Origin: a virus
Virus genome (UHGV): UHGV-0049167
DNA: 64,000 nucleotides
Strand: one strand, 5' to 3'
In this document: positions 8,916 to 59,062 of the stretch, one piece after another
How the letters are laid out: the number at the start of each line of letters is the position of its first letter
How positions within the stretch are numbered: position 1 is the stretch's first letter
Program-made: the position numbers and the translations under genes
The notes under the pieces: generated by a model
Database searches by the model: none
What the model was told of the DNA's origin: nothing
The model's input: the letters and a program-made list of their open reading frames with translations, nothing else

Positions 8916-9074
8916 ATGAGCAGGAATGAGATAATAATCCTCGTCGGCGTGCTATGTGTGTCGGTTGCCGTATGGCTTATGTATGACTTCGCCTGCTCCT
9001 TGATGACATTTGGCTTGTCTGCAATCCTTTACGGCATTGCAAAAGCCGCAATGCTACGAATGGAGGACACATGA
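8916..9074 (+). CDS. small hydrophobic protein (not in ORF track, under 60 aa)
   Basis: ATG at 8916, 52 codons, MSRNEIIILVGVLCVSVAVWLMYDF... hydrophobic; stop overlaps next start as ATGA. Confidence 0.3.
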   Translation: MSRNEIIILVGVLCVSVAVWLMYDFACSLMTFGLSAILYGIAKAAMLRMEDT

Positions 9075-9208
9075 CCGACTTTGAGCGTGAGGCGTACCAC
9101 AATGAGATTGACTTCCTGCAAGCCGAGGTCGACAGGTACCGCCAGCAGAACAAACAACTGATGGAATTTATATTCAAACTTAAAAACAGAAATAGAAATG
9201 GGATGTGA
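9071..9208 (+). CDS. small coiled-coil protein (not in ORF track, under 60 aa)
   Basis: ATG at 9071, 45 codons (MTDFEREAYHNEIDFLQAEVDRYRQQ...), fills the gap to the next gene. Confidence 0.3.
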   Translation: MTDFEREAYHNEIDFLQAEVDRYRQQNKQLMEFIFKLKNRNRNGM

Positions 9209-9770
9209 CATACATTTACGCCTTGAAAAAAGACTCAAAAAAGAAAAGGTGTGGAACAGATACTACACAGAGAAATGCGAGTGGCAAAATTGCGGAATAA
9301 TCCCTTTTGACAGAACTTGGGGTGACCGGATATATGGTATGTTCGCTGTTTTGGCAAACGTGCGCAATCGATGGAATATCGAGCATATTCCCATACGTGG
9401 ATTGCCGGATGACATCTGCCCTGCCACCTTGGAATGTTATGGTAAACCAATAAAGGATGAAATCAAAGACGCTTATGAAGACGAGAACTTTTATCTTACT
9501 TCCAAAGCAGAAGATTGGGTGAAAGACGGATTGAGCAGATATTACGTAGTGAGAGGGCGCAAGTTCTGCTCTTGCCCAGATTTCCATAGCGCGAACTGGT
9601 GTACGACGCGTGAAATGGAAGATTGCATAAACAAGGTGTTCAAAGACGAAAAAGGAAACTTCAAACCGGAGGCAGAGCCTTATGAATGGCTTGCCCTGCT
9701 CGGCGCGATGAAAGGTTATGAAAGCACCGGCGAATATGAGTGCAGGGCTATTTTTTTGTTTGACAATTAA
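9198..9770 (+). CDS. hypothetical protein
   Basis: 190-aa ORF. Confidence 0.45.
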   Translation: MGCDIHLRLEKRLKKEKVWNRYYTEKCEWQNCGIIPFDRTWGDRIYGMFAVLANVRNRWNIEHIPIRGLPDDICPATLECYGKPIKDEIKDAYEDENFYLTSKAEDWVKDGLSRYYVVRGRKFCSCPDFHSANWCTTREMEDCINKVFKDEKGNFKPEAEPYEWLALLGAMKGYESTGEYECRAIFLFDN

Positions 9771-9783
9771 AAGATTACGTAAA

Positions 9784-10008
9784 ATGGAACAAGACAACGT
9801 TATCGCAAAGGAATGCTCGCACTGCCACCGCACGTTGCCCGTCACGGAGTTCTACAAGAAGAAAGGCACGTCCGACGGTCTGCAATACTACTGCAAGCAG
9901 TGTCAAATTGAGTTTAACAACGCCTACAAATGCAAGAAGAAGGCTTTCGGGGGGGGGGAATCCCGAACTCTCACGCTTCACGCCACGTCAGCTTATGGAG
10001 GAACTTAA
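9784..10008 (+). CDS. zinc-ribbon-like protein interrupted at a G10 tract; the shifted frame stays open to 10069
   Basis: ATG at 9784 (MEQDNVIAKECSHCHR...YYCKQCQ); after the G10 run at 9949..9958 the other frame reads NPELSRFTPRQLMEELKARGYTGELKYVQTINLERL and stops at 10067..10069, overlapping the next ATG. Confidence 0.45.
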   Translation: MEQDNVIAKECSHCHRTLPVTEFYKKKGTSDGLQYYCKQCQIEFNNAYKCKKKAFGGGESRTLTLHATSAYGGT

Positions 10009-10065
10009 AGCCCGCGGCTATACTGGAGAACTGAAATATGTACAAACAATAAATCTTGAAAGATT

Positions 10066-11022
10066 ATGACACAGACCGGCATAATCGTCCTTCCGCATCA
10101 AATCAAAATGAAAGCGTGTGAAATACAACTCGACTACGACACCGTAATGTCAAAGGTAAGCCGCCCGCTTGCAAGGAAGCTGGTACACTCCGTGGAGCTT
10201 TTGCGGAAGTCGGAGAAAATGGCGTTGCGCCTCGACCCCGAAAACGGCTTTTACCTTGCGTTCAGCGGCGGCAAGGACAGCCAATGCCTCTACCATGTCG
10301 CAAAGCTGGCCGGTGTCCGCTTCAAGGCTCACATGAACCTTACGAGCATAGACCCGCCCGAAGTCATCCGCTTCGTCAAGACGCAATACCCCGATGTGGA
10401 GCTAATCAAACCACGGATGAGCATTTACGAAATGGCTAAGAAAAAGCACATCTTGCCTACAAGGATTTTGCGCTGGTGTTGCGCCGAGTTCAAGGAAACG
10501 TCAGGCGTTGGCAAAATAACACTTGTCGGTGTGAGAAAAGAAGAAAGCGCACGGCGAGCCAAACGTGAGGAAATATCCACAGAGATAAAGGGCAAGCGCA
10601 CTGAGGAAACCTTTGACCAATGGAGCGAACATGAGGAGAGCATGGTTGCGTGTGTCGGCGGTAAGGACAAAATCCTTGTATCGCCCATAATCTATTGGAC
10701 GGAGCGCGACGTGTGGGAGTTCCTTAACGTGAACGGCATACCACACTGCGAACTCTACGACGAGGGTTATACACGCATTGGCTGCATCTGTTGCCCTATG
10801 TCGCAACCATGGCAAAAAGCCAAAGAGATTAAACGTTGGCCGCACGTCAAACGCAATTGGATAAAGACAATCCAATGGCTGATAGACAACGGATATATCG
10901 ACCACAATTTCAACGACGCTGAAACAGGCTTTAGGTGGTGGATAAGCGGCAAGGGCTACAAGCAGTTCTACGCCGACGAGTTCCTGCAACAGAAAATTGA
11001 ATTTAAAGACAAAGACCAATGA
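10066..11022 (+). CDS. PAPS reductase-like PP-loop ATP pyrophosphatase family protein
   Basis: 318 aa; PP-loop motif LAFSGGKDSQ near N-terminus; C-terminal Cys cluster GCICCP. Confidence 0.65.
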   Translation: MTQTGIIVLPHQIKMKACEIQLDYDTVMSKVSRPLARKLVHSVELLRKSEKMALRLDPENGFYLAFSGGKDSQCLYHVAKLAGVRFKAHMNLTSIDPPEVIRFVKTQYPDVELIKPRMSIYEMAKKKHILPTRILRWCCAEFKETSGVGKITLVGVRKEESARRAKREEISTEIKGKRTEETFDQWSEHEESMVACVGGKDKILVSPIIYWTERDVWEFLNVNGIPHCELYDEGYTRIGCICCPMSQPWQKAKEIKRWPHVKRNWIKTIQWLIDNGYIDHNFNDAETGFRWWISGKGYKQFYADEFLQQKIEFKDKDQ

Positions 11023-11183
11023 AAGCGAGACATTGCGGCGAGTGCCGCCACTTCAAGAACGAGGACATCAACGGCGACGGCTGGTGCGGGAAGTACGACG
11101 TGGGCAGAAGATGTGGCAATGAGTGTTTGGCAAAGGAAAACAAAGGAAATACAAGGAAAATTTCCTCTAAAATCACAAGATAA
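11019..11183 (+). CDS. small Cys-rich protein (not in ORF track, under 60 aa)
   Basis: ATG at 11019 overlapping upstream stop (ATGA); 54 codons MKARHCGECRHFKNEDINGDGWCGKYD... Confidence 0.3.
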   Translation: MKARHCGECRHFKNEDINGDGWCGKYDVGRRCGNECLAKENKGNTRKISSKITR

Positions 11184-11216
11184 AATGGAGGGAAAGAATA
11201 TTAATACAAATAAGAT

Positions 11217-16247: not shown

Positions 16248-17303
16248 TTATATTAGTGGCTTTAATGATATTATCCTAGCAGATTTGCCGAATATCTTTA
16301 TCAAGACATCCTCGGGCAAGCCTGTGCTTTCCGAAATCATGCTGATTGAATACCCCAATGTGTCCGATACCAGCCTATATGCCTGCTCAAAGACGGTAGG
16401 GCTGTCAATAGGCACTTCGTAAGGTTCTTTCTTATTCCAATGACGTCTGCTGAACTCCATTCTCATAGACTTGTACTTCTCACTTGCAATGGCGTTTATG
16501 TTTTTTGCCTTTTCCAAAAGTGATGCCATGGAAACAAGCCAATACCGTTTCAGCTCAGGGAACTGTCCGAGTCTGACATTGTGCAAGGCGTTTCTGACAA
16601 CTTGGGAGGGGAGAAGGAACTCCGATGCAAAAGCGTTCGCCTCTTTCTCCTTGTCTCTAATGCTGAATACCGGGAAACTTGGGCACTCGTGCATCAGTAT
16701 GTGTCCCAGCTCATGTGCAAGCGTAAACCTTACCCTGTCGTTGCTTCTGTTCCTGTTCACGATGATAAGATGATTGCCTGCGTCAGTTATCAGGGAAACC
16801 CCGTCAAACTCGTCGTTAGGACTGTCCCACATGTAAATGAATACCCCGTTTCGCTCAAGGAATTTGCAAATATCGGATATAGGCGACATGCCGAGCCTGT
16901 ATTTGTTCCTTATGTGCCCGGCAAGTTCCTCCGGGCTTATGCCGTTGTCCATGTCGTAGTATCCAAATGAATAGTCAGGTATCTCGACAAATTCACTAAG
17001 CCAATCAAAACAATACGCAATCAGGGATATTGTCCTGTCTATCTCGTTGCGTGTCTTTACGGTTATGGTAGCCTTTTTCCTGTAATGCTTGCTGTCTACC
17101 TTGTTCACAATATTCATGTCAAGGAATTTCATCGGGAAATCAAGCGTGGACATAATCAAACCAAGCATGTTGTCAGACAGCCCGCCAAACCCCTTTTCGT
17201 ATTTTGACAGGTTGGATTGCGACAGCCCTTTGACTTTTGCCGCGAGTGCGGTTTGCGTGAATCCCCTGTATTCCCTTGCGAATGTAAGCTGCTCACATTT
17301 CAT
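16248..17303 (-). CDS. XRE-family HTH fused to ImmA/IrrE (M78) zinc metallopeptidase domain
   Basis: 351 aa; N-terminal HTH (LTFAREYRGFTQTALAAKVKGLSQSNLSKYEKG); HEXXH in FTLAHELGHILMHE. Confidence 0.7.
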   Translation of the reverse strand: MKCEQLTFAREYRGFTQTALAAKVKGLSQSNLSKYEKGFGGLSDNMLGLIMSTLDFPMKFLDMNIVNKVDSKHYRKKATITVKTRNEIDRTISLIAYCFDWLSEFVEIPDYSFGYYDMDNGISPEELAGHIRNKYRLGMSPISDICKFLERNGVFIYMWDSPNDEFDGVSLITDAGNHLIIVNRNRSNDRVRFTLAHELGHILMHECPSFPVFSIRDKEKEANAFASEFLLPSQVVRNALHNVRLGQFPELKRYWLVSMASLLEKAKNINAIASEKYKSMRMEFSRRHWNKKEPYEVPIDSPTVFEQAYRLVSDTLGYSISMISESTGLPEDVLIKIFGKSARIISLKPLI

Positions 17304-34974: not shown

Positions 34975-36597
34975 TTAACTCCACAATGTGGAGTCATATA
35001 TGCTACGTCTGACGTATGTTTTACTCTCAACTTCTTCATCCCTCCCTCTCGAGAAACCTTCTTCTATCTCTGTCCCGTATTCGAGATTTACACATGGATA
35101 CATCCTTATAGCACAGGGGTCCAACAAGTCCATTGAACGTCCGTACCCAAGCCGTAAGTTCATCTGTTTCTTGTTCATAAGTCTTTTCTTTCCTGAAGGC
35201 ATGTCGATAAATCTTACGACAGCGCACTCATCCTGAAACTCATTCTCTACTGTAACTCTGAACTTCAGGTTCTGATGTGTGTATGTGGATTGCGCTACGT
35301 TATCTGCAAAAGTGATTTGCCCTCTGTTTATCATGTTTACAAGGCGGAGATAACACAGGTCTTTCATCGTCGCTGCCGTCAGGTAGTATAACCCCATTGG
35401 CTTTGTTGATGAGAGGTAAGCTATTGCGTCCGGTATGTAGTCATTGAAATACCGTCCTGCGGTGCCGTCAAATATTATGTGGCTATCCGGAGTCTCGTTT
35501 TTATCCGCGAAAATTTTTACTCTTTGCGCGTTCTCTTTAGGAGTTGTGTGGCTTACTATTAGTATGTCGGTGACATGGAAACCGTTCCATGCCAATGCCA
35601 CCATGTTGTCTGTACCATAATCAGCCAAGTCCACAGTTACCCACCTGTCTCCGTTAACGGCAGGGGCTGCCATAAAACAGTCTCTTGCCTTGTCGCTTGG
35701 TATCGGTATGTCTACGTCCTCGTCGGGGTCAGCGTTGAAGTTCCCAAGCATTGACAGTGCCATATTGCCACCTGAAGCGGCAACGCTGCCTATATAGCCA
35801 GGGTTGCGTTCCATCAAGTCTTTATTTTGTGACACCATGCCCTGATAGAACACGAACGATTTTATCAGGTGTTCATAAGAAAAATTGCCGTTTAACCTTT
35901 TTAATTTGTTTTCTATGTCTATGCGGCATTTCCGATAGACTTCCTCTTTCGTGTCACCCCAGACGACATCCTTAACCGTAGCCCCGTTTATGTAAAAATA
36001 TCTTACAACACCGTCACGTTCGGGATTTACATAGCCGTCTAATCCTACATACCAGTCAAGGAATGTTCTCGACCAATGGCTGCGCTTCGGGTTGAACGTG
36101 GCAAAGAATTTCCCGGTAAACGTCTTGCTCTGCCCACGGTTACGGGTCATCACGTATGTGAACGCCTCCCATGACATCTCGGTCAACTCGTCTATGGCTA
36201 TCGCGTCATACTCCCATCCTTTTGCACGCTCTCGCAACTTATCCATATTGGAGTCGTCGATGTACGTCAAATCGCAGAACGTGCCGATGGGGAAGCTGAT
36301 GCGCGGGCTGTCCGACTCGCGTACCTTTATATAGTCAGTACCGAACACTTGCTTGAATTTCTCCACGAAACCGCCGCCCGCCTTTTGGTTGCCAAGGCTT
36401 CGGCGGCTTATCAGGCATCGGAAATCAGGGTCGGTCATCAGTGGCTCGGCAAAGGCAAGAAGCAAGCCCAGCGACTTGCCGCCACCCGCTGCACCGCCGC
36501 CGAACACCACGTCTACATTGGTGCTGGCGAACATATGCTGGAATGGAGAATTCGGTTTCCAAGTAATGTCCTTTATGTTACTTTGACTGTCTGACAT
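34975..36597 (-). CDS. terL: terminase large subunit
   Basis: 540 aa; Walker A VVFGGGAAGGGKS, Walker B AIAIDELTE, C-terminal nuclease-like DLADYGTDNMVALAW. Confidence 0.85.
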   Translation of the reverse strand: MSDSQSNIKDITWKPNSPFQHMFASTNVDVVFGGGAAGGGKSLGLLLAFAEPLMTDPDFRCLISRRSLGNQKAGGGFVEKFKQVFGTDYIKVRESDSPRISFPIGTFCDLTYIDDSNMDKLRERAKGWEYDAIAIDELTEMSWEAFTYVMTRNRGQSKTFTGKFFATFNPKRSHWSRTFLDWYVGLDGYVNPERDGVVRYFYINGATVKDVVWGDTKEEVYRKCRIDIENKLKRLNGNFSYEHLIKSFVFYQGMVSQNKDLMERNPGYIGSVAASGGNMALSMLGNFNADPDEDVDIPIPSDKARDCFMAAPAVNGDRWVTVDLADYGTDNMVALAWNGFHVTDILIVSHTTPKENAQRVKIFADKNETPDSHIIFDGTAGRYFNDYIPDAIAYLSSTKPMGLYYLTAATMKDLCYLRLVNMINRGQITFADNVAQSTYTHQNLKFRVTVENEFQDECAVVRFIDMPSGKKRLMNKKQMNLRLGYGRSMDLLDPCAIRMYPCVNLEYGTEIEEGFSRGRDEEVESKTYVRRSIYDSTLWS

Positions 36598-58238: not shown

Positions 58239-58340
58239 GTATACATTGTTTAATTAGACTACCCAAATATATACATTTACAATGCTTATACATTATTTTT
58301 TGCTGAAAATCAAACGTTTTTGTCATACAAGAACGCCCTT

Positions 58341-58361
58341 GTGTTGCATTTGTGTTGCATT
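58341..58361. repeat. tandem direct repeat GTGTTGCATT x2
   Basis: GTGTTGCATT-T-GTGTTGCATT read directly. Confidence 0.5.
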
Positions 58362-58460
58362 CTCGCTATTCCCTCCATCATAATTGATGGACTTGTGAAT
58401 TAAAAAAAAATAAAAAAAATTTGAGAATGGGTGGCATATGTTCGAACCTTGCCCTATAGC

Positions 58461-58468
58461 GGGGGGGG
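58461..58468. repeat. homopolymeric G8 tract in non-coding DNA
   Basis: AGCGGGGGGGGATACC read directly. Confidence 0.6.
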
Positions 58469-58644
58469 ATACCCTTTATATAAGAGTACGGATACCCACA
58501 AACGTGTAATATTTCGTTATGTCGCTTTTGTGCGCTGCTTTCACGTATGCAAATACACGTGTTTATTTATATGCCTTTAATCGTGCATTATTTGCGTGCA
58601 TAACGTCCGTATGTATGCAAATACGTAAATGTACCATATCTTTA

Positions 58645-58685
58645 TTAACGCGTATATATAAATATATTTATATAGTACGCGTTAA
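58645..58685. promoter_or_regulatory. 41-bp near-perfect palindrome (TTAACGCGTA arms around an AT-rich self-complementary core)
   Basis: TTAACGCGTATATATAAATATATTTATATAGTACGCGTTAA; outer 10-bp arms are exact reverse complements. Confidence 0.5.
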
Positions 58686-59062
58686 CTAAAGATATAAAAT
58701 CTTTTCGCGAATGCTCCGTACATTGCCTTTAAACAGTCCATAATAACACACACATTGCAACAACTGCAAAGCCGTGCGTTAACAGCCCGCCAATACATGG
58801 AGCGATAAGGGGCACACGCGCGTAACTTAAAGGCGTCAGAAGGCACGCAAACCGTGTTACTGCAAAGGTTTTAAGGTGTTTGTACTCTTATTTTGCATTA
58901 ACTGTAATACCTTGATTGTCAATGTGTTAAAGTGTTGTTTATTACATGAAAATAAACGGGATATAATTTTGTCATTTCAATATTTATTACTACATTTGCA
59001 ATGTAAGAGGTACGGAGAGAAACCCAAAGGCTTACAAGCGTTCTTTTTGGATATTGGGCAAT

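Follow-up and report, generated by a model that had tools for sequence, protein, structure and literature searches.

Among the systems closest to the locus described here is the com-mom region of phage Mu, in which the gene for a small zinc-finger translational activator overlaps a DNA-modification gene. Hypermutable poly-G tracts have reportedly been described in Campylobacter phages (Sorensen et al. 2021, Cell Rep 35:109214, as cited in PMC12823448 and PMC10877375). Lytic phages are said to carry these tracts in genes for receptor-binding or structural proteins, with switching measured experimentally. Gomez, Barrick & Waters (bioRxiv 10.1101/2025.10.21.683753) describe short homopolymers in agt of phage T2 and rIIA of phage T4 that mutate reversibly by polymerase slippage, and report that such repeats are in excess among regulatory and hypothetical genes. 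In bacteria, phase-variable genes and phasevarions of Neisseria, Haemophilus, Helicobacter and Campylobacter, among them mod genes and genes for surface structures, contain tracts of homopolymers or short repeats (e.g., PMC8355987, PMC5084427). Phase variation in Bacteroidales is known mainly as driven by invertases and not by repeats. Our literature searches returned no report of homopolymer switches in Bacteroidales phages, and the paper describing LoVEphage mentions neither frameshifts nor homopolymers. Here we analyze a run of ten G residues (G10) inside a small zinc-ribbon gene in a 64,000-nucleotide (nt) stretch of the virus genome UHGV-0049167 (hereafter, the window). The original prediction, made from the letters alone, had left open whether this run is an assembly error, a phase-variable switch that operates by slipped-strand mispairing, or a site of programmed ribosomal frameshifting. 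We find it probable that the run, which lies in a short gene of the early region of a Bacteroidales phage, is a hypermutable homopolymer of the contingency type, and that the window carries the OFF (out-of-frame) allele.

A G10 tract divides a zinc-ribbon gene

The locus comprises the following features, with positions counted from the first nucleotide of the window:

9784..10008, plus strand: open reading frame (ORF) of the OFF state, 74 amino acids (aa), encoding a four-cysteine zinc ribbon and a basic helix, followed by an out-of-frame tail of 16 codons
9814..9903, plus strand: zinc-ribbon core CxxC...DG...CxxC, codons 11-40, with C11, C14, D31, G32, C37 and C40 invariant in alignments
9949..9958, plus strand: G10 homopolymer in the glycine linker between the two domains; G9 gives the ON (in-frame) state, G10 and G8 the OFF state
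9959..10069, plus strand: C-terminal motif NPELSRFTPRQLMEELKARGYTGELKYVQTINLERL in the +1 frame, with its stop codon; undamaged and identical to that of the ON contig L007
10066..11022, plus strand: gene of a PAPS-reductase-like protein, a variable cargo gene whose ATG overlaps the stop of the ON frame (ATGA)

From the ATG at 9784, the ORF reads MEQDNVIAKECSHCHRTLPVTEFYKKKGTSDGLQYYCKQCQIEFNNAYKCKKKAFGGG up to the tract, which is embedded in the sequence TTC-G10-AATCCC; three Gly codons and 16 further codons then lead to the stop at 10006..10008. Past the tract, the +1 frame stays open for 36 codons and ends with the TGA at 10067..10069, overlapping the ATG (10066) of the 318-aa PAPS_reduct protein. 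The tract coordinates and the early end of the tabulated frame were re-derived from the sequence with the same result, and the second frame, with its ATGA overlap, was read out as claimed. The frame analysis also agrees with the prediction that either G9 or G12 in place of G10 fuses the two halves, the G9 form encoding 94 aa. Overlaps of the ATGA type had been said to be used throughout the genome; they are indeed common in this operon (e.g., 8910/8913, 9071/9074, 11019/11022 and 13761/13764).

The G10 run is a statistical outlier and not a chance feature of this genome. Under a first-order Markov model, from which the expected numbers were obtained analytically, 10.5 runs of at least six G or C are expected in the 64-kb window, compared to 2 that are observed, and only 0.023 runs of at least ten are expected. 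In this phage, GGG makes up a minority (15%) of Gly codons, and all 8 of the other Gly-Gly-Gly tripeptides are encoded by mixed codons. Within the gene itself, GGG is never used at the three conserved Gly positions outside the tract.

Search of the protein databases with the hand-fused 94-aa sequence yielded 106 homologues. Members of the 18 closest clusters (72-96% identity) are full-length and contain ...AFGGGNPELSRFTPRQL..., and within the C-terminal motif P67, R68, Q69, L70, E73, L74, R77 and G78 do not vary in the family, and T66 hardly does. Since more than 100 homologues have the two domains without interruption, the fused 94-aa form is, judged from this comparison, the intact, normal gene; most homologues are the full 94-aa protein, in line with the expectation that orthologues would show an uninterrupted ORF. 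The same list also contains products that are split or shortened exactly at the Gly tract. Among these, P0020 is a 74-aa form like that of the window, P0019 is the corresponding form in the third frame, P0033, P0054, P0060 and P0066 are other broken products, and P0097-P0104 are pieces from other lineages that consist of the C-terminal part alone. The exact 74-aa product of the window is present in public assemblies (P0107). Altogether, the protein collection holds 3 products of the G10 type (P0107, P0020 and P0108, the last from a 127-kb contig), 1 of the G8 type (P0019), and 7 ON variants.

One member of the collection has an unusual N-terminus. P0077 (67 aa; from an 8.3-kb contig in NCBI/ENA) begins with MKKIMFNDKLGLTQAVLEGRKTQTRR, which looks like an N-terminus of the ASCH type. 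The sequence RRLSGGGNPEL... then leads on to the C-terminal motif, so that the part before the tract is in the +1 frame. This protein may be a recombinant, or a deletion fusion, at the tract.

Tract length varies among close relatives

We compared the nucleotide sequence of the window to the DNA of more than 150 relatives, drawn from metagenomes, IMG/VR, GTDB genomes and GenBank phages. Five close loci carry the following tracts:

L007 (ULPR01050941.1): 0 mismatches and 1 gap relative to the window over 2762 nt; G9, in frame
L230 (Logan assembly ERR321544): 100% identical to the window over 3225 nt; G10
L004: 98.3% identical to the window, with no gap; G10
L005: 98.7% identical to the window, the sole gap being at the tract; G8
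L006: 96.9% identical to the window; GGAGGGGGT, in frame

In the wider lineage (72-90% identity), L222-L226 carry G8T and are in frame, L227 (G10), L228 and L093 (both G7T) are out of frame, with the tract as the sole gap relative to the nearest in-frame relative, and in L229, where one A comes after G7, a 2-nt gap at the junction of the tract puts the gene out of frame. Of the three explanations left by the original prediction, slipped-strand variation is the one best supported by these data, given that G8, G9 and G10 occur among contigs that are identical or 98-99% identical, and that length-variable poly-G or poly-C occupies the same linker in several divergent lineages.

Homopolymers are the most common site of indel errors in assemblies, and the true tract of the window could be G9, with the gene intact and the G10 a miscall; L007 differs from the window by G9 alone, and some of the relatives are noisy in homopolymers. 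This explanation is, however, improbable. The G10 was found again in the independent, 100% identical assembly L230 and in two further strain backgrounds, L004 and P0108; the window has no other indel relative to L007, L004 or L005; and a comparable out-of-frame allele is present in the SPAdes contig L093, for which the assembler reported, in the contig name, a coverage of 26. Compared to the standing that it had in the original prediction, an assembly error has thus become less likely given the independent G10 assemblies, even if one could still affect this particular window.

As a control for assembly quality, each variant was aligned to its nearest relative and every gap was listed. Four loci showed many 1-nt indels in short homopolymers elsewhere in comparison to close relatives: L018 and L083, which are VOFG/VOFH contigs, and L085 and L015, which are SPAdes contigs with a reported coverage of about 0.8. 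Indels of this kind are typical of long-read or very low-coverage assembly, and these four loci should not be used to call tract length. Conversely, the tract is the sole frameshifting indel in the window, L004, L005, L007, L227, L228, L093, L204, L218/L219, L209 and L136, several of which are SPAdes contigs, and the gaps in L115 are confined to its two LoVEphage tracts. Because the tract is the only frameshifting indel in such clean comparisons, the length variation, as far as assemblies can tell, is centred on the tract and does not reflect a generally noisy assembly.

The same comparisons bear on the possibility that G10 is the designed state of the gene, the full-length protein being made by +1 frameshifting or transcriptional slippage. 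The sequence GGG-GGG-GGG-G would permit re-pairing of tRNA-Gly in the +1 frame, and the downstream frame is intact and ends in the conserved ATGA junction. Nevertheless, most orthologues are in frame, including the contig that is identical to the window but for the tract, and OFF alleles of two kinds exist, G8 and G10, one for each of the alternative frames. There is no rare codon or stop codon at the shift site, where the next codon is GAA, and neither a significant RNA structure, in a fold of 9985..10125, nor an Rfam element was found. Recoding as the designed mode is rejected because the OFF state is not conserved and occurs in both alternative frames; we regard it as very improbable, and the suggestion of a programmed ribosomal frameshift in the original prediction is not supported.

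G and C runs recur at the linker across the family

We further analyzed the linker in the whole family, defining it as the stretch of about 80 nt between the second CxxC and the FTPRQL motif. The relatives comprise about 125 non-redundant loci in 21 clusters, which were set at 75% identity of the domain cores. Runs of at least seven G or C are present in the linker in 7 of the 21 clusters. The position of the run shifts slightly between clusters, and the runs are mostly poly-G, encoding Gly, with poly-C, encoding Pro, in a Muribaculaceae lineage. Such runs occur at 3.2 per kb in linkers, compared to 0.031 per kb in 356 kb of flanking sequence, a difference of about 100-fold.

Tract-bearing loci are out of frame far more often than tract-less loci (20 OFF and 24 ON vs. 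4 OFF and 77 ON; Fisher p = 1e-7), that is, about 45% compared to 5%; when the noisy loci were dropped, 18 OFF and 23 ON tract-bearing loci remained. Within the LoVEphage lineage, the frame is kept by G7 and G10 and lost with G8, G9 and G11; the LoVEphage reference genome (MW660583) has an out-of-frame allele, and the induced cultured prophage BI-TP1 an in-frame one. In the OFF alleles that we examined, the C-terminal frame retains the motif and the motif-to-stop length of the ON relatives, with no secondary damage, a pattern that is consistent with reversibility. The tract has three of the properties by which contingency loci are recognized, namely, a run of sufficient length inside a gene, length variation that changes the frame, and over-representation relative to the background.

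The same slippage could, however, act in a linker that merely tolerates it, with no selection for the run, so that the OFF alleles would be ordinary loss-of-function alleles with no adaptive role, in an accessory gene that the phage can do without, above all as a prophage. We consider this explanation somewhat unlikely. It fits with the variation of linker length and sequence across the family, with the tolerance of in-frame variants (G7/G10 and GGA insertions), with the synonymous changes of the Gly codons in the lineage of the window (lineage A), and with downstream partners that are variable and mostly without an assigned function. What speaks against it is that runs of at least six G or C are avoided in the genome of the window, and long runs are so rare in the flanks of the relatives, while they recur in a third of the clusters (7 of 21), as G or as C and at differing positions of the linker; that the examined OFF alleles lack secondary decay; and that a second variable run, at the 5' end of a methyltransferase gene of LoVEphage, has the classic phase-variable layout.

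Several observations weigh against a hypermutable, selected switch. In the lineage of the window, the three Gly codons show no clear excess of conservation at their synonymous sites over other such sites (GGA occurs in L006, GGT in several others). Given that conservation of these sites is unclear in the phage's own lineage, selection for the run is argued from its recurrence across lineages instead. Long G runs concentrate sequencing errors, tract length cannot be trusted in some of the public relatives because their assemblies are noisy, and the comparison as a whole rests on assemblies, in which variation of the tract is not separable from read errors specific to it. No RNA structure backs an obligatory translational coupling of the downstream gene, and the protein has neither a Pfam or NCBIfam family nor a significant fold match, so that its function is read from weak similarities.

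In the flanks of the relatives, a few other ORFs also contain long G runs: L017:2439 (G9, in a 369-aa ORF), L111:5365 (G8, in a 750-aa ORF) and L047:1917 (G7). These may be additional contingency tracts.

The zinc-ribbon protein and its C-terminal motif

In an AlphaFold2 (AF2) model of P0001, a full-length relative that is 96% identical (alignment of 41 sequences), residues 8-37 are predicted to form a zinc ribbon with a per-residue confidence (pLDDT) above 90, followed by a basic helix (residues 38-54), the Gly linker at low confidence, and a helix at residues 67-76. The PHROG matches of the ribbon are to the N-terminal zinc ribbons of Lar-like, endonuclease VII (EndoVII) and HNH families; despite this likeness to nuclease families, the protein lacks a nuclease domain. 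Against Pfam and NCBIfam, the fused protein returned sub-threshold zinc-ribbon noise only, and Foldseek found no significant match to the AF2 model in the PDB, the zinc ribbon of Hpy99I coming closest (E = 0.26).

A search with the 36-aa C-terminal segment identified 133 cluster representatives. The top matches are proteins of 300-700 aa with 5-9 tandem copies of the motif (...KQLFEEIKAKGYQGTLKAVKIFL...), for which Pfam gives only weak matches to Trans_reg_C, helix-turn-helix (HTH) and winged-helix families. Because the proteins with tandem motifs have these weak HTH matches, we read the C-terminus as a putative minimal HTH-like DNA-binding element, and the product of the intact gene is probably a small DNA-binding regulator. 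Among the tandem-motif proteins, P0115-P0131 carry the motif as 5-9 tandem repeats of about 65 aa in proteins of 240-690 aa (e.g., ...SPKQLFEEIKAKGYQGTLKAVKIFL...) and form an uncharacterized repeat family.

The downstream gene varies between relatives

The PAPS-reductase-like protein matches PF01507 (E = 2e-21, above the gathering score) and phrog_424 (E = 2e-38), whereas its scores for the NCBIfam equivalogs (CysH, DndC and others) are all far under the cut-offs. By tblastn, a PAPS reductase gene is found downstream of the zinc-ribbon gene in the closest relatives only. Among the close relatives examined (L222, L225, L227, L223 and L092), the next gene encodes a 313-aa radical SAM protein or is a 34-aa ORF; in LoVEphage, an HxsC-like radical SAM protein takes the place of the cargo; and in other lineages, the downstream genes are unrelated and mostly have no Pfam match. 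The TTATGA stop/start junction is retained in the lineage of the window whatever gene comes next.

Directly after the PAPS-reductase gene lies a 54-aa Cys-rich ORF (11019..11183), whose homologue in L092 (50% over 40 aa) is the gene that directly follows the zinc-ribbon gene. As the ORF after the PAPS-reductase gene in one genome corresponds to the ORF after the zinc-ribbon gene in the other, the PAPS-reductase gene looks like cargo inserted at the junction, and the junction appears to act as an insertion hotspot. The view that the zinc-ribbon protein is a dedicated partner of the PAPS reductase was dropped, given that the downstream genes vary between lineages.

A search for an RNA hairpin that would occlude the start of the PAPS-reductase gene found weak stems only (z = +1.05, for the fold of 9985..10125, which begins about 27 nt 3' of the tract). 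The locus has no match in Rfam, and no terminator was found between the stop of the OFF frame and the start of the next gene.

A second homopolymer was observed two genes downstream of the zinc-ribbon gene in the LoVEphage lineage, in a gene for a C5 cytosine DNA methyltransferase. A run of C8, C9 or C10 lies 6 codons past the ATGATG start of this gene in ten loci: L087:3817, L090:3816, L091:3814, L088, L089, L114, L115, L117, L214 (MW660583) and L216 (BI-TP1). Only C9 (L090 and L114) places the start in frame with motif I (FSCFACGGGS), so that 8 of the 10 loci are out of frame, and public annotations of the LoVEphage methyltransferase begin at a later ATG. From this layout, the methyltransferase of LoVEphage looks phase-variable.

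The phage and its early operon

The zinc-ribbon gene belongs to a plus-strand early operon together with genes for DnaD-like and DnaC-like helicase loaders, an HNH endonuclease and a pyrophosphatase. The window encodes a large terminase subunit (TerL; 34975..36597, minus strand), a portal and a major head protein; its TerL is 28% identical to that of LoVEphage, a megablast search with 9000..11200 found no match among GenBank phages, and a Prevotella metagenome-assembled genome carries a relative of the zinc-ribbon gene with 75% identity. We assign the window to a new tailed phage of Bacteroidales.

An ORF of 351 aa on the minus strand (16248..17303) matches the PHROG families 'transcriptional regulator' (phrog_2439, E = 2e-74) and 'metallo-protease' (phrog_87); presumably, it resembles the lysogeny-switch proteins of the ImmA/IrrE type. 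Its orientation opposite to the early operon suggests that the phage is temperate.

The second long G/C run in the window, a G8 at 58461..58468, is in an AT-rich region (58239..58700) without a listed ORF of at least 150 aa. Close to it are A9 (58402..58410) and A8 (58412..58419), and a block of short repeats follows (ATGCAAATAC...). The AT-rich region could be regulatory or origin-like.

A model for the switch and its implications

Under a contingency-type switch at the linker, slipped-strand mispairing during DNA replication would add or remove G residues. Tracts of 9 (or 6 or 12) would yield the full protein and would let ribosomes reach the start codon of the next gene, which the stop overlaps, whereas G10 and G8 would yield a product consisting of the zinc ribbon only, with translation ending 58 and 32 nt, respectively, before the start of the cargo gene. 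The OFF alleles would lose the conserved HTH-like C-terminal motif, which is presumably needed for function, and would uncouple the downstream gene, probably lowering translation of the cargo. We infer that slippage during replication generates the variation, frequently and reversibly, and, from the recurrence of the runs, that the tract may be kept by selection as a form of bet-hedging.

A broader version of this model is that phages and prophages of Bacteroidales, including the highly prevalent LoVEphage, repeatedly evolved G/C switches, at the linker and in the LoVEphage methyltransferase gene, for bet-hedging of a regulator and of coupled cargo enzymes (PAPS-reductase-like or radical SAM proteins, possibly functioning in DNA modification or anti-defence). 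This generalization is tentative, and we hold it with distinctly less confidence than the switch at the window locus itself.

If the switch is real, phage populations in gut Bacteroidales would be mixtures of ON and OFF forms of an early DNA-binding protein and probably of the coupled enzyme too, a repeat-driven counterpart, on the phage side, to the invertase-driven phase variation of the hosts. There is also a consequence for annotation. Public records, including MW660583, split or shorten the gene and label its products 'hypothetical', 'Lar-like' or 'HNH endonuclease', whereas both halves would have to be treated as one phase-variable gene. The family has cultured members, BI-TP1 (Bacteroides intestinalis BG4) and PV4-TP1 (Phocaeicola vulgatus BM8), and a further relative with a C12 tract is a prophage of Paramuribaculum intestinale DSM 100749.

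Comparison with known systems

The parallel with the Mu com-mom region is an analogy only. In both cases, a small gene encoding a four-cysteine protein lies directly upstream of, and overlaps the start of, the gene for an enzyme that, here, may possibly act on nucleic acid. Unlike in Mu, no start-occluding hairpin is supported here, and the downstream gene varies between relatives; the Com family is absent from the Pfam matches of the protein at E values up to 1, and there is no NCBIfam match.

As in the bacterial phase-variable genes, an intragenic G/C homopolymer of at least seven nucleotides has frame-toggling length variants among near-identical genomes, but the carrier here is a phage and the gene encodes a small zinc-ribbon protein. 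The loci of T2 and T4 share with this one the presence of slippage-prone homopolymers in non-structural phage genes; theirs, however, are A runs of 6-9 nucleotides in AT-rich coliphages, which have hundreds of them per genome, in contrast to the single long G/C run at this locus, in a genome that otherwise avoids such runs, recurring at one site of a protein family.

In the Campylobacter phages, likewise, a G homopolymer reportedly lies inside a phage ORF and its length shifts the frame, producing ON and OFF subpopulations. At the locus analyzed here, by contrast, the tract occupies the linker of a predicted DNA-binding protein, encoded by a small early gene of Bacteroidales phages and prophages. 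It is known from sequence comparison, and may also gate a putatively translationally coupled downstream gene. Taken together, phage contingency loci are already known; what is unusual here is that the tract recurs at the linker of one family, as G or as C, and that it lies just upstream of a putatively translationally coupled, exchangeable enzyme gene.

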